Assembly (NCBI GenBank): GCA_027451965.1
Contig: DAIDHJ010000001.1
Coordinates: 317,276 to 354,798, forward strand
Direction: 5' to 3'
DNA: 37,523 nucleotides
From: Candidatus Adlerbacteria bacterium
GTDB taxonomy: Bacteria > Patescibacteriota > Minisyncoccia > Phycocordibacterales > SBAW01
Shown here one piece after another: positions 14,530 to 22,745 of this stretch (position 1 is its first letter; each line of letters begins with the position of its first letter). The notes beneath the pieces were generated by a model that was not told where the DNA came from, ran no database searches, and saw only the letters and a program-made list of their open reading frames with translations. A program made the position numbers and the translations under genes.

Positions 14530-15585
14530 ATGGCTAGGACCGCCTCCAAAGAAAGCACTGGAATAGCACTCTATCGAAAGTACCGTCCCCACACGTTTGC
14601 GGAAGTACGCGATCAGCAACATATTGTCTCGGTGCTTGAAGCGGCTGTTGAACGGGGAACCATTGCGCACGCATACCTGTTTTCTGGAAGCCGCGGCACG
14701 GGCAAAACCTCTCTTGCGCGTATTCTTGCGCGAGCGGTGGGAACGAGCGATCAGGATATTTATGAACTGGATGCCGCGAGCAATCGCGGCATCGATGAAA
14801 TACGGGAACTGCGCGAGGGAGTGGCGACGCTGCCGTTCGATTCAACGTATAAATTTTATATTCTCGATGAAGTGCATGCGCTTACGCCGCAAGCGTGGGG
14901 AGCGCTTCTCAAAACACTGGAAGAGCCTCCGGAGCATGTGGTGTTTGTGCTGGCAACGACCGAGTTCGATAAGGTGCCTGAAACTATTGTCTCTCGTTGC
15001 CAGGTATTTCAGCTCAAAAAGCCTTCTCACGAGACGCTTAAAAAACTGGTATTGGATGTGGCGAAGAAAGAAGGTGCATCGCTCGCGTCCTCTGGGGCGG
15101 AACTCATCGCTCTTATGGGAGACGGATCGTTCCGCGATACGCTCGGTATTTTGCAAAAAGTGCTTACGCTTTCCACAGATGGAAAACTTTCTGAAGAAGA
15201 AGTAGCAAAAGTGGTCGGTGCGCCGTCTGGCACTCTGGTGAACGGATTTCTGCAAGAACTTTCGGTAAAGCATATTCCGGAAGCGCTAAAACTGTTTTCT
15301 CAAGCACGGGAGGGGGGAGTGGAGACAAAAGTATTTTCACTGCTGATCATTACCAAAATACGCGCGGTGCTGCTGGTACGGTTTGCTCCGGAGCTGAAGG
15401 GAGAGTTAGAAGAGCAGTTTGGAGCAGAGGATATGGAAGTGCTTACCACACTCGCCAAACAGAAGGACTCTGCAATAAATGCAGACCTGCTCTCCGCATT
15501 TATTACGGCACATTTGGAAATCGACCGTTCTCCTATTCAAGCGATTCCCTTGGAGCTGGCGATCTATAAAGTTCTGGGCGAGTAG
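14530..15585 (+). CDS. dnaX: DNA polymerase III subunit gamma/tau, short form
   Basis: LYRKYRP, HAYLFSGSRGTGKTS, ELDAASNRGID, ILDEVH, LLKTLEEPP, TIVSRC, GSFRD. Confidence 0.95.
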   Translation: MARTASKESTGIALYRKYRPHTFAEVRDQQHIVSVLEAAVERGTIAHAYLFSGSRGTGKTSLARILARAVGTSDQDIYELDAASNRGIDEIRELREGVATLPFDSTYKFYILDEVHALTPQAWGALLKTLEEPPEHVVFVLATTEFDKVPETIVSRCQVFQLKKPSHETLKKLVLDVAKKEGASLASSGAELIALMGDGSFRDTLGILQKVLTLSTDGKLSEEEVAKVVGAPSGTLVNGFLQELSVKHIPEALKLFSQAREGGVETKVFSLLIITKIRAVLLVRFAPELKGELEEQFGAEDMEVLTTLAKQKDSAINADLLSAFITAHLEIDRSPIQAIPLELAIYKVLGE

Positions 15586-15632
15586 TTCATTTCGCAAATC
15601 AAGCAATTTTTTGCTATGCTCAAAGGTGTTTT

Positions 15633-15703
15633 TGGGAGATCGTCTAATGGTAGGACAGCGGCCTTTGAAGCCGTTAATCATGGTTCGAATCCATGTCTCC
15701 CAG
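15633..15703 (+). tRNA. tRNA-Gln(TTG), 3' CCA not encoded (followed by CTA)
   Basis: TGGGAGA/TCTCCCA acceptor, GCGGC-CT TTG AA-GCCGT, CATGG-TTCGAAT-CCATG. Confidence 0.96.
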
Positions 15704-15778
15704 CTAGTATATTTACATATTAACGATACTGTTGTATAGTATTTTTAGTTACAAGTATCCCTTTGAAAGGAGGGTTTC

Positions 15779-17656
15779 ATGGTTCCTTCACAACTTCACA
15801 CCAAAGCTCGTGAGTTTACTGCTCAAGTGCCTAATATGTGGCGCATGATGCGTGAAGCACGTCAGTTCATGTATACCGTGAGTCCTTCCATGTATTACAT
15901 GTCATGGTTCGAAGGTATACTGGGCGGCATTGCTACACTAGGTGGTTTTGCTGCAGTAAGTGTATTTTTCCAACATGCGACTGGAGGTGCGGTACAGTCA
16001 TGGTTACATTCGCAACATGTAAGCATTGCTTTCATTATAGTAGCGCTTGTTGCTATCGTACTTTACTTTCTCATTCGCGGCACACTACATGCAATTGGTA
16101 ATTTGCGCAGGAGTCTTCTTCAAAACAAAGTAGAGCTACTCCTGGAGCAGGAAGAGATTAATCTGTTGATGAATTTAGATGCCGGACGTCTTTCTGACCC
16201 TGCATTTATGTTCATCAGAGAAAAAGCGACCAAATGGCATGGACGCAACGCCGTTTCCCAACTCTTTACAAAACAACGTAATGTGTTTGGAGCACTGGTT
16301 GGCGTTCTTGCATCTCTGGGTTTACTTGCAATATTGAACCCCCTCTTCATTGTACTTACCACAATTCCTATTGTGGTTGGAACACTTGCAGAAATGCAGC
16401 GCGAAAAGAAAGATCGCGCTATATGGGAATCAATGCATTTAACCCGTCGTTTACACGATGAGTACGAACGCTGTCTCATGGATCCCATGTATTTATTGCA
16501 AGGAAAGCTTTTTTGTTTTACATCGTACTGGCGAAAGCGCTACAACACGATGCAAAATGAACTGGTTCAAAAAGAACAAGAACTGGAGTGGTTCAGATAC
16601 AAGTGGAATCTCGTCAATGTGGGGACTGGGGTATGTATGCTCGCCATCATTATGGGGTACCTTGGTCATGGAATAGCTGATCGAACCATAGCATTTTCAG
16701 AAGTCTTTCTGATTTGGGGTAGCATGCAAACGCTCGCTCGCTCTATTACCAGTTTTTCTTCTTCGATCGGACAAATTTGGCAAGGATGTCTCGATTATAC
16801 GTACCGTGAGCAGTTTCTTACAACCAAGCCGCTTATCGACGAGTCGAAGTCGGAGTCGTTCCGATTTCCTTCTACGCCGAAGCTTGAGTTGCGAGAAGTT
16901 TTTTTCCGTTACCCACGGGAAGAGAACCTAGTACTCAAAGGGTGTTCAATTTCGATTACGCCAAATGAAAAGGTGGCTATCGTAGGTCAGAATGGTTCTG
17001 GGAAGAGTACGCTGTTACGGCTACTATCGAAGATCTACCTACCTGATGAGGGTCAGGTGCTAGTCGATGGTTTGTCGATTTCTCGCATTACACAATCTTC
17101 TTGGTTCGAGCAAATACTCTTTGCTACGCAGGATACTCAACTCCCGAGACTTACTGTCGAAGAAGTTCTTACAGGAGGACCTCCACGAACCGCTGATATG
17201 AATCGGCTTATCCAAGCTGCAGGGCATGCACGAGCTGTTGAAATGATCACCGATGAGTTTCCTCAGCAGTATGAACAACAACTTGGTGCTGACTGGCCAG
17301 ATGGTAAAGAACCATCGACTGGTCAGTGGCAACGGCTCAAGATCACCTCAGCCTTCTATCGACTACTTGAACCGGCAGTGCGCATCGGTCTCTTCGACGA
17401 ACCGATGTCGCAATGTGACGTAGAGACACGAGAACGTTTCTATCGTGAGTTACAAGGAGTCAGTGGTAAGACCATTATCGTGGTTGCACATGATCCTGTA
17501 TATCTGCACTATTTCCAGCGGGTTATCCTAATGGAACATGGCTGCATTGTACGAGATATGTGCACCCGAGAAGAGATTGTTGCTTATCAGCGCGAAGCTA
17601 TCCCTCGATTTGAGCAGATTGAGCGCAAGGGTAACCATCTTTGGTCAGTGGAGTAA
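15779..17656 (+). CDS. Fused ABC exporter (TMD + NBD), divergent
   Basis: About 6 TM helices, Walker A GQNGSGKST, signature PSTGQWQRL, Walker B GLFDEP, H-loop VAHD; SD AAAGGAGG. Confidence 0.9.
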   Translation: MVPSQLHTKAREFTAQVPNMWRMMREARQFMYTVSPSMYYMSWFEGILGGIATLGGFAAVSVFFQHATGGAVQSWLHSQHVSIAFIIVALVAIVLYFLIRGTLHAIGNLRRSLLQNKVELLLEQEEINLLMNLDAGRLSDPAFMFIREKATKWHGRNAVSQLFTKQRNVFGALVGVLASLGLLAILNPLFIVLTTIPIVVGTLAEMQREKKDRAIWESMHLTRRLHDEYERCLMDPMYLLQGKLFCFTSYWRKRYNTMQNELVQKEQELEWFRYKWNLVNVGTGVCMLAIIMGYLGHGIADRTIAFSEVFLIWGSMQTLARSITSFSSSIGQIWQGCLDYTYREQFLTTKPLIDESKSESFRFPSTPKLELREVFFRYPREENLVLKGCSISITPNEKVAIVGQNGSGKSTLLRLLSKIYLPDEGQVLVDGLSISRITQSSWFEQILFATQDTQLPRLTVEEVLTGGPPRTADMNRLIQAAGHARAVEMITDEFPQQYEQQLGADWPDGKEPSTGQWQRLKITSAFYRLLEPAVRIGLFDEPMSQCDVETRERFYRELQGVSGKTIIVVAHDPVYLHYFQRVILMEHGCIVRDMCTREEIVAYQREAIPRFEQIERKGNHLWSVE

Positions 17657-17668
17657 GTAGTTCAACAG

Positions 17669-17697
17669 AAAAAGGAGTCTTTCGAGACTCCTTTTTT
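17669..17697 (+). terminator. Intrinsic terminator
   Basis: AAAAAGGAGTCT-TTCG-AGACTCC followed by a T run. Confidence 0.9.
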
Positions 17698-17744
17698 ATT
17701 TTGATCTTAAGAGGCTTCTTATATTACCCAACTCACGCAGCAAG

Positions 17745-17777
17745 TACTTGACAAGTAAGTAATAAGTGTAGTATAAT
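17745..17777 (+). promoter_or_regulatory. Consensus sigma70 promoter with a palindromic -35 box
   Basis: TTGACA (17748-17753)-18 nt-TATAAT (17772-17777); palindrome TACTTG-A-CAAGTA. Confidence 0.8.
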
Positions 17778-17828
17778 GTAGAAGTACGATCTTTAACAGT
17801 TCTAGTCTAGCTCAAGAAAGGAGCAAAC

Positions 17829-18167
17829 ATGGTTCAGTGGTATCGTTCTCTCCCGGCGTGGCAGCAGGCTGTGCTGCGAGATCTTGGACGAGGACTGTTG
17901 GCCTTATGTCTCCTTCCATTCCGGATTCTCGGGTGGATCTTGAGAGAGATGGGAACACAGGCAACGACGAGTACACAACGTTTCGTTCGGCCACTTCTGT
18001 GGCCGGCAGCTGGAGTCTTCGCCCTCTTCGCATTCTATACGGTGATGGGACCTCAGCAATTCTCGTCTCTCGTCGGTCTGCTTTTGACCTTGGGTATCGT
18101 CCTTTACGGACTGAAACTCATGGTCTTCGGTTTTTCAAAACCGAAGAAAAGAAAGCGGACACACTAA
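17829..18167 (+). CDS. Small hypothetical membrane protein (112 aa) with a basic C-tail
   Basis: SD GAAAGGAG, 2-3 hydrophobic segments, KPKKRKRTH end, own promoter and terminator. Confidence 0.75.
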   Translation: MVQWYRSLPAWQQAVLRDLGRGLLALCLLPFRILGWILREMGTQATTSTQRFVRPLLWPAAGVFALFAFYTVMGPQQFSSLVGLLLTLGIVLYGLKLMVFGFSKPKKRKRTH

Positions 18168-18175
18168 CATTCTCG

Positions 18176-18204
18176 GGCGGATTGCAATAGCGATCCGCCT
18201 TTTT
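18176..18204 (+). terminator. Intrinsic terminator
   Basis: GGCGGATTGC-AATA-GCGATCCGCC-TTTTT. Confidence 0.85.
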
Positions 18205-18272
18205 AATTTGCTATTAATAAGGTTCTCATATAATCCAACTCACGCAGCCAAGTCGTTATAGGTTCTTGGGTT

Positions 18273-18999
18273 CGAGATGCGTCGTTTACTTAACAATAGA
18301 ATAGATTACAATCAGATTGTATGAGTCAGCTAAAAATAGTTGCGCTCGGTGAAATAACTCAGAAGGCTGGAAAAGCTTTCTTTCCGCGTTTTGGGGGAAG
18401 CTTAAAAGATACTCTCGAACCATTTCCTGCGGAATATTTAGAAAAACAAAAAGAACATCCTGTAAAATTTTGGGGAGATATTTTCTGGGCTTTCAAAGAT
18501 ATTGTAGTCCAAGTGCTGAATTATTACGATGCAAAATCGGATTACGAAGTATCTACAGAAGTTGCGCATTTTGTAGTGAATTATTTGAAAAGTGATAAAT
18601 CTAAAAGATTGCTTAGCCAACTAGTGCCTTTTGGGGAATACATAGAAATGGGTAACGATTTCATGATGGAGACCGCAAGTCCAAGTGATAAATCGGCTCA
18701 ATTCAAGGATTGGTTTACAAAGGCGCTAACCCTCATTTGTATGGGGGTGCGTATAAGTTCTAAAGAAGAAGAGGCGCAAGTTAACACACAAAGAGAAGCT
18801 ATGCGTAAACTCGCACTACTTGCTTTGAAAGGATTGCATAATAATTCTTCCAAAGAAGATTTGACTGTAGCCACTTGGTTTAAGAATATGTTTTTACTAT
18901 TTGAAAATCTCGATATCAAGGGATCTACGCCGATGTTTTCTTTTGAGGAACAGAGTGCATTGGTCTGATATTTATAGATACACCCGAGACGCGTCGTTT
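18273..18999 (+). repeat. 15-bp direct repeat B (18273-18287 / 18985-18999), one mismatch
   Basis: CGAGATGCGTCGTTT versus CGAGACGCGTCGTTT, bracketing the 215-aa gene. Confidence 0.8.
18321..18968 (+). CDS. Hypothetical soluble protein (215 aa)
   Basis: Long AT-rich ORF with TACAAT 8 nt upstream; no motif recognised. Confidence 0.75.
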   Translation: MSQLKIVALGEITQKAGKAFFPRFGGSLKDTLEPFPAEYLEKQKEHPVKFWGDIFWAFKDIVVQVLNYYDAKSDYEVSTEVAHFVVNYLKSDKSKRLLSQLVPFGEYIEMGNDFMMETASPSDKSAQFKDWFTKALTLICMGVRISSKEEEAQVNTQREAMRKLALLALKGLHNNSSKEDLTVATWFKNMFLLFENLDIKGSTPMFSFEEQSALV

Positions 19000-19140
19000 T
19001 GTAAGTGTAAAATGAAGCTAATCCGTCAAGCGGGGTTTGACCGACCACGGTTCGAGCACGAGATGGCCAGCCAGTTTGAGACAGGTTCAGTCTCCGAGGT
19101 GTCTTTATAAAATATTAAAAAGGGGGCGTATACTTTATTT

Positions 19141-19686
19141 GTGATAGACATAATCAATAAAAACCAAGGGGTCATATCCTTTCTTGCGATTATTATCTCT
19201 CTAGTAACTTATTTCCTCACTGGCCAGAAATTGTGGGTCTTCGCTGTGCTTGTTGCAGTAATACTCATTTTGAGCGTACTCCTTTTTTGGGAGAAAAAGC
19301 GCCACAAATCTTTTGTAGATACTCAGAAGAAAGCCCGCATCCTATTCATTGATGACAAACACTGCGAGATTGTGACTAACTTACGGCGTAACGACTTTGA
19401 AGTTCGAAAAATTGATGATGTAACATCGCCAGCAACAGATACTGATGTTCAATGGGCAAATATAATCTTTGTCGACTATAAAGATGTTGGCAAGAAACTT
19501 TTTGGGAAAAAAGAAGGTCTCGGTCTTATAAGCGAGCTGAAGAGAACCTATATGAACAATAAGCGTTACGTTATCTATTCATCAGTACAAGATTTCGATG
19601 GACTTGTTGAGTTTCCATACATTCGGAAAAATGCTTCTTATGACGAATTCGTATCGCTAATTTCTACTGAGCTGGCCAAACTATGA
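19141..19686 (+). CDS. Membrane-anchored receiver (REC)-domain protein with no output domain
   Basis: Two N-terminal TM helices, then RILFIDD, IIFVDY (phospho-Asp position), EGLGLISELK, VIYSS, YIRK. Confidence 0.75.
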   Translation: MIDIINKNQGVISFLAIIISLVTYFLTGQKLWVFAVLVAVILILSVLLFWEKKRHKSFVDTQKKARILFIDDKHCEIVTNLRRNDFEVRKIDDVTSPATDTDVQWANIIFVDYKDVGKKLFGKKEGLGLISELKRTYMNNKRYVIYSSVQDFDGLVEFPYIRKNASYDEFVSLISTELAKL

Positions 19687-20687
19687 TTCACTTAAGAATC
19701 ACAAGTCAGGATAGGGTTTTGATAAATACATTTCCAGACGAATTTAGCGTTGAGGGCGCAGAAAAAGATAAGGATGTCCGCTACGTGGAACAAAAGATAG
19801 ATTCAGGGATCATTGAATTTCTTTTTGTGAAAGAGCCGCGTATCGCGAGGAGTAACAAGGTTCTCAATGCCTTTACATCGGCAATGACGATTCTTCTTGA
19901 AGAATCATTAAAGAATAATGTCCAACGAGCTCAAGAAATGGCTGATGATTACTTACATAACATAAAGAAGATTCATGGAAATCAAAAAAGCATAATTGAG
20001 AGATGTGTGTCAGGAGCCGAAGAACAAGAAAACTATCAGGAGTTCGTCAAATCTGTTGCGAGAGAAGTCCAGGAGAATCCAAGTGTAACAGCAGAGGATA
20101 TCTGCGCTCTTTCAAAAGAGATACGGCTGATTGATTACCATATTGGAGGTTACAACCTGTTGCGGGACAATTCATCGCGAATAGCAATTACGGACAATCA
20201 CGACTTAAGAAAGTTTCTACTAGGGTTATCTCATCTATTTTTCGATTCTTTCTCAAAGAATAAAGTTCTTGTTAGTCTGCATGAGATTGACAAAGATTTC
20301 CGATGTTCATTCGAATACGAAACTTTCAATGTTGCCATGCATAGCTTCCTCGAGAATATCGTCAAATATTCTAAGCCCTACTCTAAGGTGAGAATTTATA
20401 CGCAAAATACGGGTCAACTTATTTTCCAAATGGAAAGTATTCGCCTCGAGAAGGATGAGTTAACCAGTATTTTCAAAAGAGGAGTGTCTGGTCGCAATGT
20501 TCCAGATGATTTGCGTGGGAATGGCATTGGCATGTATCAACTAAAGAAGGCTTTGGATAGAAGTAATATCTCCATATCTATCAGGCCAAATTACTCAAAA
20601 AACTCAGATTTAAACGGCATTCAATATGCCGAGAACATTTTTTCGTTTACATTTCCGAAATTCTCGTTCCGAGATGTATCATTTTAA
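19683..20687 (+). CDS. Soluble histidine-kinase-like HATPase protein
   Basis: ATGA overlap with the REC gene. H-box-like DYLHNIKK, N-box LENIVKYS, F-box IFKRGVSG, G2 GNGIGMY; no TM. Confidence 0.75.
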   Translation: MIHLRITSQDRVLINTFPDEFSVEGAEKDKDVRYVEQKIDSGIIEFLFVKEPRIARSNKVLNAFTSAMTILLEESLKNNVQRAQEMADDYLHNIKKIHGNQKSIIERCVSGAEEQENYQEFVKSVAREVQENPSVTAEDICALSKEIRLIDYHIGGYNLLRDNSSRIAITDNHDLRKFLLGLSHLFFDSFSKNKVLVSLHEIDKDFRCSFEYETFNVAMHSFLENIVKYSKPYSKVRIYTQNTGQLIFQMESIRLEKDELTSIFKRGVSGRNVPDDLRGNGIGMYQLKKALDRSNISISIRPNYSKNSDLNGIQYAENIFSFTFPKFSFRDVSF

Positions 20688-20814
20688 AAAAGGAAAAGTC
20701 GCCCGAAAACCCTTGTGGTGCTTGATGGATAATTTTCTGAAACCGAGGGGCCAGCCAGTTTGAGATACGTTCGGAGTTCAAGTAATATAAATCTTATATC
20801 CCAACTAACTTCCT

Positions 20815-21279
20815 ATGCGTAAATTACTTGTCTGGATTGTTTTAATTCTTATTGTTGCAGTAGCAGTATGGTACACACTACCCAAACGAGCGCCACAGCA
20901 ACAGAGCAATAGCGCTGCCAGTACCACTCAAATACCCGGCGACAATCTTACCTTAGGGCAAACTGCCTCTGCCGGAGTGGGAACATATCTCGTGGCATAT
21001 AACGGGATGACTCTCTACACGTATGCGCTTGATGCTACCAATGTTTCCAATTGCACCGGAGGATGCGCAGTCGCGTGGCCGCCGTATCTGGTAACTTCAA
21101 CAAAAAACCTTGTAGCAGAATATCCGCTTAATGGAATGATAGGGACCATTGCCCGTAGCGACGGTTCAACACAAATAACCTATAACGGCCGACCGCTCTA
21201 CTTTTTCAAAGGAGATACAGCGCCAAATCAGGTAAATGGGCAGGGTATCGGAGGAGTGTGGTACGCAGCAAAGCCTTAA
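20815..21279 (+). CDS. Secreted/anchored COG4315-type protein with Yx(F/W/Y)xxD repeats
   Basis: GMTLYTYALD, CTGGCAVAWPP, QITYNGRPLYFFKGD, GQGIGGVW. Confidence 0.85.
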   Translation: MRKLLVWIVLILIVAVAVWYTLPKRAPQQQSNSAASTTQIPGDNLTLGQTASAGVGTYLVAYNGMTLYTYALDATNVSNCTGGCAVAWPPYLVTSTKNLVAEYPLNGMIGTIARSDGSTQITYNGRPLYFFKGDTAPNQVNGQGIGGVWYAAKP

Positions 21280-22745
21280 GGCAGTACGTTCCAAATATTC
21301 GGATCCTCACCTCCATCTAATTTGAATATTGCTACGCCTCGTACGCCAAGCTGTTTAGCTAAGGTAACTTTTTGTGCGATTGCTTGCGCATCGCTCCAAT
21401 CGATCAAGTTGAATGTGGATCCGGTTGTCGTAGACATGCCATCGGTATAGGAGACAGAGGGCATGTTAACAGTGTTTGTTGGATTGAGATCAACTTCATC
21501 TCCCGTAGGCGAATAATTTCCCGATGATACATAGGTAAATGATGGCTCTCCGGCGCTATTGCGAATAGGGGAGATACCCAGTTTCGACATGAGATCGAGT
21601 GCGTATTTCTGGTTGAACGGCCAGAGCATCTGATACTTGTACTGGTATCCGGAGGAAGAGATTACCGGCGTGACCGAATATTCATAGCCGTAGGTAGGAA
21701 CGCCGATAATGATTTTGTTTCGTGCGATGGACTGTGCAGCGAGATTTACCAGATCGCTGACCCATTTCGGATCGGCAACCGGAGCGTAAGGACCGGTTTG
21801 TTCTTTGTTCAATGGCTTGTCGATAGTGCCCTGGTCATATGCCATAATCTCGACTCGGTCGCAGTATCGGTTCATTTGCGTGTAATCATTTGCATAGTCT
21901 GTTGCGTCCAAAGGAATGGTAGCTCCCGGGGCATATCGATCGCTCAGTGGCATCCGTGCTTCCACGGTGCAATACACCCATTTGTTTCCCATCTTGGGAT
22001 AGAGTTCTCGTAAGAATGCCGAAAATGCATTTCTGGTATCTGCGGTTTTTGCCTCGAAATCAATATCAATGCCATCAAAATTGTTTTGACGCACTGTTGC
22101 GACAATCTCATTTTCAAGTGCGATACGAGATGCTGGATCAGTAAGTACTGCCTGTTCTGCAGTGCCGTTACCCCACATCACGGTCGGTACTACGCGAACA
22201 TGAGCTTGTTTTGCAGTCGCAATGAATGAGCTCCAAGTGATTCCGGTAATATTTCCCGCATCGTATAGATGGCCGTTCACGGTTACGGTGTAATTAAACG
22301 GCATGACTGAAGTGAGCTGATTAAGATGCGGCAACACATCTTGCGTACCGGATGCAGTGCTCCAGTAGGGAATCCATCCGGATATCTCAAACTTTCCCGT
22401 TGCACGGCGCGTTTCTGTACCGGTGAGTATTGCTTCTGGATTGGTAAAATTATACAGCGCTTGCTGAGTAAGCGGTCCTGCAATGCCATATCCGGAGTAG
22501 GCCGCGCCGGAGCAGATAATATTTTCCGTGCATTGAAACTTTTCTACTGCCGCTTGTGTCAGCGGTCCGAAATAACCGGTAGCACTATCTGAAGAAAGGT
22601 AGCCAAGAGTGATCAGCTGTTTTTGAAGAAGGGTCACTCCATACCCTGAGGAACCAAGAGTGAAAGACCGGGCGGCAAAGGAAGTGTGCGGTAGAAGGAG
22701 AACTATCACTGCCAGTATTCCGATAAATAAATGTTGTTGTTTCAT
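21276..22745 (-). CDS. Secreted GH18 glycoside hydrolase with an N-terminal peptidoglycan-binding domain
   Basis: Signal peptide; LGSSG..V..LQ..L...GY..TGYFGPLTQAAVEKFQ; intact DGIDIDFE catalytic motif; IMAYD; GVPTYGY. Confidence 0.9.
   Translation of the reverse strand: MKQQHLFIGILAVIVLLLPHTSFAARSFTLGSSGYGVTLLQKQLITLGYLSSDSATGYFGPLTQAAVEKFQCTENIICSGAAYSGYGIAGPLTQQALYNFTNPEAILTGTETRRATGKFEISGWIPYWSTASGTQDVLPHLNQLTSVMPFNYTVTVNGHLYDAGNITGITWSSFIATAKQAHVRVVPTVMWGNGTAEQAVLTDPASRIALENEIVATVRQNNFDGIDIDFEAKTADTRNAFSAFLRELYPKMGNKWVYCTVEARMPLSDRYAPGATIPLDATDYANDYTQMNRYCDRVEIMAYDQGTIDKPLNKEQTGPYAPVADPKWVSDLVNLAAQSIARNKIIIGVPTYGYEYSVTPVISSSGYQYKYQMLWPFNQKYALDLMSKLGISPIRNSAGEPSFTYVSSGNYSPTGDEVDLNPTNTVNMPSVSYTDGMSTTTGSTFNLIDWSDAQAIAQKVTLAKQLGVRGVAIFKLDGGEDPNIWNVLP

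Follow-up and report, generated by a model that had tools for sequence, protein, structure and literature searches.

Integrons carry the gene of an IntI-type tyrosine recombinase, with the attI site and the promoter Pc, beside an array of gene cassettes, and the attC sites of these cassettes are conserved in fold and not in sequence. In the accretion known from streptococci and from composite SCC elements, integrase-less elements flanked by att sites lie in tandem with integrase-bearing ones at a single site and could in principle move with help in trans. Both the cis-mobilizable elements and accretion of streptococci and the SCC composites are named in the account of the ssrA islands of Dehalococcoides, which describes islands that lie in tandem, with 20-bp repeats of the 3′ end of ssrA as their bounds and a serine recombinase gene adjoining attL on the reverse strand (PMC3146451). 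An integration module is absent from fifteen of them, and these are treated there as either cis-mobilizable or fixed (McMurdie et al. 2011, PMC3146451). The tRNA islands of Prochlorococcus that are fed by tycheposons are a further parallel; of the 937 elements described there, 910 use tyrosine recombinases (bioRxiv 10.1101/2020.12.28.424599). The locus described here lies behind a tRNA-Gln gene of a Candidatus Adlerbacteria bacterium and shares some features with each of these systems.

The source genome (G000) comprises 552 kb in five contigs with a GC content of 47%, and the window, by which we mean the whole analysed stretch of 37,523 nucleotides, is positions 317276-354798 of its 548-kb main contig (G000:C1). 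Parts of this window also occur in public sequencing runs, which are mine-drainage metagenomes. The anchor of the locus is an intact gene for tRNA-Gln(UUG), with anticodon ttg, at 15633-15704 (ARAGORN; 66.8 bits with the Rfam tRNA model; + strand, as are all window features below unless noted). Its 3′ end reads ...TCTCCCAGC followed by TAGT, with CAGC at 15701-15704, and it has no encoded CCA (CTA at the CAGC end). The genes dus and dnaX lie immediately upstream, and downstream come five co-oriented genes, then a COG4315-type lipoprotein gene and then a GH18 gene on the other strand. We lean, with moderate confidence, towards reading 15705-20755 as a tandem accretion of four accessory modules at the 3′-end attachment site of tRNA-Gln(UUG). 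These modules carry no recombinase and are probably now fixed.

Such an accretion would resemble the Dehalococcoides ssrA islands in placing several islands in tandem behind a single small-RNA gene, the 3′ end of which would recur as a direct repeat at the close of each. A further parallel is the gene of a large serine recombinase (LSR) that adjoins attL on the reverse strand, CcrB-like in Dehalococcoides and here seen in relatives only. Extra conserved sequence around the repeats and many islands without an integration module are also common to both. The target here is tRNA-Gln in place of tmRNA. The modules, of 0.5-2 kb and one or two genes, are much smaller than the ssrA islands; the repeats are degenerate with no recombinase left, and a conserved 93-nt tRNA-like element and a promoter-bearing trailer frame unrelated open reading frames (ORFs). 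With the Prochlorococcus islands the locus would share successive integrations at one tRNA that push older elements deeper, partial tRNAs and degenerated remnants scattered within the island, and defence or niche cargo in a streamlined genome; unlike them, the islands of its relatives encode LSRs, and no replication module is seen in the window's array. Compared with the streptococcal cis-mobilizable and SCC elements, the att-like sites are worn and the mobility of the modules is putative.

A preliminary description of this DNA had called the region an integron-like array. The likeness is loose. Co-oriented units of one or two genes, each ending in an element like a recombination site, and unit boundaries near start and stop codons are shared with integrons. 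The locus differs in having no platform of IntI, attI and Pc and in units that bring their own promoters, with a promoter-like site in at least three of the four modules (1-3); its site is conserved in sequence and shows no attC-like fold, and its anchor is a tRNA gene. Full-text literature searches turned up no account of arrays of this kind in Patescibacteria, a negative that does not prove their absence.

Boundary sites behind tRNA-Gln

The locus was compared with the tRNA-Gln loci of 38 related species, a few of them from other families of the order. The order dus-dnaX-tRNA-Gln is conserved in the relatives and the DNA downstream of tRNA-Gln is hypervariable, homologues of window genes (23031, 28989 and 35736) reappearing only past about 4-10 kb of unrelated DNA. 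In none of the 38 loci does an ABC, 112-aa, 215-aa, PDC-M43, COG4315 or GH18 gene lie behind the tRNA. The earlier proposal of successive captures was open to comparison with related genomes, and the comparison agrees with it on this point: no relative's locus shows fixed synteny of the array genes. The region behind tRNA-Gln is an insertion hot spot.

The boundaries themselves are best seen with a profile hidden Markov model (HMM) built from six relatives only, which combines the last 12 nt of tRNA-Gln with 70 nt of the trailer that follows it and was scanned over the whole 552-kb genome. Its three best matches are 19065-19129 (E 4e-6), 18240-18309 (E 2e-5) and 20750-20774 (E 0.04), the next having an E-value of 1.7, so that three of the four sites proposed earlier rank as the top three genome-wide. 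Behind the true tRNA-Gln of G084 (relatives are given by number), CAGC is followed by CAACTCGTGATAGGTTATC..CGAGATGCGTCGTTTAC, matching the window at 18245-18290; in G045 and G059 it is followed by CAGT(A/T)TGAGATAGG.., matching the window at 19068-19110 and 20752-20790, and G045 goes on GTTCGGACTCCGA... Exact junction matches of 13-16 nt are shared with G013, G014 and G059, that with G059 being 16 nt. The sequence families swap partner exactly at the CAGC end. Judged from these sequences, the array boundaries appear to be real derivatives of the tRNA-Gln 3′ end.

The likeness of the sites to the genome's own tRNA-Gln is less telling. All four downstream sites at which the preliminary description had seen the core CAGCNA(A)GT of the tRNA end are present: the motif lies on the + strand at 15701, in the tRNA, and at 17738, 18245, 19068 and 20752, where the CAGC ends fall at 17741, 18248, 19071 and 20755. 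The agreement of 18232-18250 with the tRNA end at 14 of 19 positions is reproduced by hand count (13 of 19 in a shifted scan), as is the tRNA-like spacing of GGTTCGA (19049-19055), 11 nt and CCAGC (19067-19071), followed by CA. The four sites form two local repeat pairs, D1 (17693-17741 and 18200-18248, 82% of 49 nt) and D7 (19065-19088 and 20749-20772, 22 of 24); a third pair, D3, joins 18273-18287 to 18985-18999 (14 of 15). None of the three pairs has a further copy in the rest of the genome, and an Rfam scan of 15400-21400 at E<=10 returned the true tRNA only, with no credible tRNA fragment or other family.

With 78 occurrences on both strands of the 548-kb contig, the motif is expected 0.36 times per 5093 nt of single strand and is observed four times (P = 5e-4); counted as repeat pairs, the four shrink to some two independent events (P ~0.05), with the motif itself picked after the fact. 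Seventy-six sites genome-wide reach a likeness to the tRNA end of at least 13 of 19. For the match at 19046 (20 of 32), 2000 shuffles give P = 0.049, and the genome has about 12 chance sites that are as good or better. Taken alone, the likeness to the genome's own tRNA-Gln end is marginal. The core is found at the true tRNA-Gln end in 12 of 37 relatives. The 17738 site is the weakest, its sole support being the repeat with 18245. As a source of the sites, other tRNAs of this genome were considered and set aside: their 3′ ends fit no better than that of tRNA-Gln.

Strain-level evidence comes from assembled contigs of three runs of one study, sequenced at such low depth that gaps in cover prove nothing. 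A contig of X3 (216 nt, depth 2-4) runs within the end of the 93-nt element to 19053 and continues at 20754, thereby skipping a putative defence gene pair at two CAGC sites. A contig of X1 (895 nt, 94% identical) matches 20753-21320 and departs from the window at 20753. Both breakpoints fall at a predicted CAGC site, and the expectation that rearrangements would coincide with the sites is borne out to this extent. X1 also holds contigs of depth ~10, flanking the block, that are ~98% identical to dus, dnaX and GH18; among the matches listed within the block there are only pieces of modules 1-2, with 0-1 letters different and at depth 3.5-4.7. We read X1 as holding a commoner close strain without the block, a reading that the contigs do not prove. 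No circular junction was found among the assembled contigs of the three runs. In metagenomes, a scan with the COG4315 protein reached 33 loci, with identities of up to 57%; none of them has a tRNA or a trailer, and no strain-level comparison could be drawn from them.

These results bear on the plainest alternative, namely that the sites, whether due to chance or of regulatory role only, have no tie to recombination and that the genes are ordinary neighbours on the chromosome. The marginal likeness to the own tRNA end would suit it, as would the existence elsewhere of 13-16-mers that match the relatives' junctions. Three of these, at C1:537777, 541172 and 542285, were rejected as chance matches inside a repeat-protein gene; the gene is an open frame of 4545 aa with internal repeats (G000:C1:534403-548040), at the end of the main contig and outside the window. 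The alternative is largely refuted by the lack of synteny in any of the 38 loci, by an HMM made from relatives that picks just these sites in the genome, and by contig breakpoints that coincide with them, and we hold it to be very improbable. The low GC of modules 3 and 4 also speaks against it: modules 1-4 have GC contents of 0.45 (0.448), 0.48, 0.39 (0.392) and 0.39 (0.385), compared with 0.52 in dus-dnaX and 0.46 in the window.

Recombinase islands and the proposed origin of the array

Islands with recombinases occupy the same point in several relatives. In G018, a 502-aa LSR (Resolvase, Recombinase and Zn_ribbon domains) adjoins the tRNA on the opposite strand and shares with a Shedu gene a 4.7-kb block, at the end of which a 15-nt exact copy of the tRNA end is followed by a trailer. 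In G065, genes for a split LSR, a methyltransferase and other proteins share a block of 7.3 kb, with an 18-nt copy at its far end; G030 has a displaced copy of ~22 nt, and G094 a 23-kb island with a 55-nt copy at the far end. The copies that bound these islands are near-exact and 15-22 nt long (55 nt in G094). Nine of 37 testable loci of relatives contain, away from the tRNA, a further copy of its end that differs at no more than 2 of 16 positions, and a displaced copy, trailer or tRNA-like element of some sort occurs in 14 of 38, always downstream and on the same strand. The LSR domain PF07508 is present in 52 of 80 genomes of the genus. In five of them (G009, G018, G053, G063 and G094) it is encoded on the opposite strand at most 1 kb from tRNA-Gln(ttg), and in G065 and G075 at most 5 kb from it. 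Five loci (L110, behind tRNA-Gln(ctg) of G018, L039, L045, L049 and L060) have non-coding inserts of ~115-170 nt between tRNA-Gln and an exact 16-18 nt copy of its 3′ end; these look like emptied islands or miniature elements.

The array was correctly described as integrase-less: it contains no recombinase gene, and the genome has neither a Resolvase nor a Recombinase domain, that is, no serine recombinase. A search elsewhere in the genome, as had been suggested, found tyrosine recombinases (Phage_integrase) only, namely a 321-aa gene at C1:152171, which we take to be Xer-like, and an integrase on contig C2 (1751 nt), neither of them near the array. On C2, a 463-aa tyrosine integrase frame has the same 5′-part fragment of another tRNA on both sides (reverse strand); this is probably an integrative element of that other tRNA, at which the assembly broke. 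The remaining contigs, C3-C5, are short, carry tRNAs and have GC contents of 0.49-0.60. For the serial capture by a recombinase acting in trans that had been proposed, the tRNA-derived boundaries, the hot spot and the partner switch at CAGC hold, and no trans-acting recombinase was identified.

The favoured reading of tandem accretion takes its mechanism from the relatives. LSR islands of the genus, as seen there, insert at the tRNA-Gln end with the recombinase gene adjoining the tRNA on the opposite strand, and the old tRNA end is displaced, together with the sequence behind it, and forms a direct repeat at the distal end of the island. In the present genome, repeated insertions followed by loss of the recombinase genes and decay would have left the four modules, each beginning just past a CAGC junction and ending in what would be a degenerate tRNA-Gln-like arm. 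The array would now be fixed, and would move only if an incoming island brought a recombinase that still recognised the worn sites.

Several observations weigh against this account. The array holds no recombinase gene or fragment, so that a recombinase origin is drawn from the relatives. The sites of the window differ much from its own tRNA end (11 of 15 or worse), and the window contains no copy of that end within 2 mismatches of 16, as compared with the 9 of 37 relatives above. The D1 arm of modules 1 and 2 is genome-specific and has no homologue in 79 genomes of the genus. The contig evidence is thin, consisting of one contig each at depth 2-8, with 29 letters on the shorter side of the joint and the likeness set to 85%. 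A simple chain of integrations would place the old trailer at the last boundary only, and trailers are found at three (18249, 19072 and 20756), so that either elements with trailer-like left ends or another mechanism is needed. Lastly, a compact unit with conserved ends and unrelated cargo recurs in the genus, and independent erosion of large islands predicts otherwise. The trailers at three boundaries and the recurring unit together keep two further explanations in play, a cassette system acting at the CAGC end and homologous exchange. Eroded remains of successive larger islands, which the preliminary description had offered as its alternative to captured cassettes, fit modules 1, 2 and 4 at least as well as its cassettes do.

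A recurring unit of trailer, ORF and tRNA-like element

The 93-nt element that closes module 3 (18979-19071, with CAGC at its end; element HMM E 6e-28) is a degenerate, nearly full-length copy of tRNA-Gln, in which a D-loop CTAAT, TTTGA, GGTTCGA and ..CCAGC can be made out, and it is 84% identical over 104 nt to an element of G084. It has 25 matches in 20 of the 79 other genomes of the genus, with 72-87% identity for full-length matches. For twelve of the 25, the contig has a tRNA-Gln-type gene 0.1-5 kb upstream in the same orientation; at least four have none so placed, and the rest are on short contigs. In G018 and G084 the element also occurs behind tRNA-Gln(ctg). Across 27 copies it is conserved from a GCGCTCrAGwCGCGTCG box through CAGC and no further. 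Past this point comes trailer A, trailer B, a third type or unrelated sequence; the same types lie behind true tRNA-Gln genes in other species. The element was also considered as an RNA gene, which is ruled out by the lack of a consensus fold and of covariation: no consensus structure exists among the 27 copies, and five sequences gave 9 pairs with no compensatory change. Viral contigs gave no match to the two conserved blocks of the element.

Copies also occur apart from tRNA-Gln, as at L108 (G071:C2) and L109 (G054:C32), where none lies in the ~20 kb fetched. Two such copies share the following sequence CCGmAGACTTTT..GTATCGGAC, and the element may itself be a landing site. In G071, a 444-aa LSR is encoded 0.75 kb beyond one copy.

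Trailer, same-strand ORF(s) and element recur together as a unit, in the window (215 aa), in G073 (NUDIX), in G054 (167 and 153 aa), twice in G084 (140 and 67 aa; 214 aa) and twice in G018, making seven units at six loci in five species. In the five loci with a single unit the element starts 0-11 nt past the stop codon, and in the second unit of G018 directly past it; the first unit of G018 has its sole called ORF on the opposite strand. The cargo proteins share no homology (no blastp match at E<=1e-3, all phmmer E-values above 0.04). The trailers contain −35 and −10 boxes, and in several units and species 6-8 nt separate the end of the −10 box (GCGATACAAT or similar) from the start codon, a spacing that suggests leaderless expression of the cargo. 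The cargo is flanked by copies of a 15-17 nt box, CGAGAyGCGTCGTTT, and in 5 of 7 units the two copies are of one variant. The box, which the trailers and tRNA-like elements of relatives also contain, could by itself be a site of protein binding or of crossover; the copy at 18985-18999 contains the palindrome GACGCGTC.

One way to account for the unit is an active cassette system, in which promoter trailer, ORF(s) and 93-nt site would be excised and inserted singly at the CAGC end by a recombinase in trans. Arrays of an integron-like kind would then grow behind each of the two tRNA-Gln genes of the genus, and the LSRs of the islands at the same point would perhaps be the recombinase. The recurrence of conserved ends around non-homologous cargo in all seven units is what such a system would leave, as is an element that is 72-87% identical across species whose DnaX is only 64-72% identical and whose other spacers do not match beyond junction and arm sequences. 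Its conservation also halts at CAGC, with varied trailers following as they do after true tRNA-Gln genes, the X3 contig omits module 4 at two CAGC sites, and an LSR gene lies near one element in G071. However, no recombinase for it has been identified, this genome having no serine recombinase, and LSRs are not enriched with the element (11 of 20 genomes with it, 41 of 59 without). No cassette was found in two different places and no circular junction in the assembled contigs; the site has no conserved fold, modules 1 and 2 have their different, genome-specific arm, and the sites of this genome are worn, far more degenerate than the active-looking repeats of relatives. We regard an active cassette system as rather unlikely, and give the same low credence to the broader proposition that this genus of ultra-small bacteria of the candidate phyla radiation (CPR) type runs a gene-cassette system on its two tRNA-Gln genes, an analogue of the integron by tRNA mimicry with self-expressed cassettes.

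Homologous exchange is a second candidate and seems to us less probable again. Trailer and tRNA-like element would then be expression parts that double as homology arms, between which cargo is swapped by RecA-type recombination after DNA uptake, and the short duplications would arise through single crossovers of circularised fragments. The promoter boxes that end just before the start codon in several species (GCGATACAAT for example) are in keeping with this, as is the flanking CGAGAyGCGTCGTTT box with its matching variants. The copy at 19003-19071, a nearly full-length degenerate tRNA and not a short core, also fits duplication of a long segment. Arms of 50-100 nt with 72-87% identity between species are, however, a poor substrate for homologous recombination, the partner switch is sharp at CAGC and not spread along the arms, and the recombinase-bearing islands of the relatives use the same point.

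Genomes of ~0.5 Mb have few known routes of gene gain. Here the tRNA-Gln end is a genus-wide entry for defence and export genes, with the LSR islands as its visible vehicle. Should the small units turn out to be independently mobile, they would represent a cassette system of a new kind, and ready attachment sites and recombinases would be at hand for genetic tools where manipulation is very difficult. If they are immobile, the locus is a clear and datable record of islands decaying into fixed accessory genes.

Genes and signals of the four modules

Parsed at the CAGC ends, the array begins with module 1 (15705-17741), in which a promoter-like site (15712-15740) precedes the gene of a 625-aa ABC exporter (15779-17656) with matches like those of type I secretion or bacteriocin exporters. 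A terminator (17668-17697) and the right arm D1a (17693-17741, with CAGC at its end) complete it. No orthologue of the exporter was found in the 79 other genomes of the genus at E<=1e-60. Module 2 (17742-18248) follows the same plan, with a consensus sigma-70 promoter (17748-17777, 12 of 12 positions), the gene of a 112-aa membrane protein (17829-18167), a terminator (18175-18200) and the right arm D1b (18200-18248), again with CAGC at its end. The 112-aa protein has no match in Pfam, PADLOC or PHROG, and in NCBIfam two sub-threshold matches only (E 0.03 and 0.1, far below the cut-off).

Module 3 (18249-19071) opens with trailer type A (18249-18309; E 2e-5 with the relatives-only trailer HMM, 79% identical to the trailer of G084), within which lie box D3a (18273-18287) and a promoter-like site (18285-18312). 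It encodes a 215-aa orphan (18321-18968) that matches no family and has a single homologue (44% identity over 212 aa) in 5.8 billion clustered proteins. The module ends in the 93-nt element, which contains box D3b (18985-18999).

Module 4 (19072-20755) starts with the first copy of trailer type B (19072-19129) and holds two adjacent genes, the stop of one overlapping the start of the next. The first (19141-19686) encodes a membrane-anchored receiver-like protein of 181 aa (PADLOC PDC-M43A, 6.9e-20) and the second (19683-20687) an HATPase of 334 aa (PDC-M43B, 2.8e-42). Both PDC-M43 partners are thus present, and the genes form a PDC-M43-like candidate pair for phage defence, PDC presumably standing for phage defence candidate. 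In a scan of a genome collection with the HATPase as query, the pair is kept at 51-68% identity in 4 genomes of Patescibacteria; these loci have no tRNA within 6 kb and no trailer, and hence no shared ends. The diverged tRNA-like right arm of module 4 (~20706-20755, with CAGC at its end) is 81.5% identical over 65 nt to a sequence of G047, where the counterpart sits 0.8 kb behind tRNA-Gln.

The first DNA past the last boundary (20756-21279) begins with the second copy of trailer type B, from 20756 onward. It contains a promoter-like site (20760-20788) that would serve the COG4315-type lipoprotein gene at 20815-21279.

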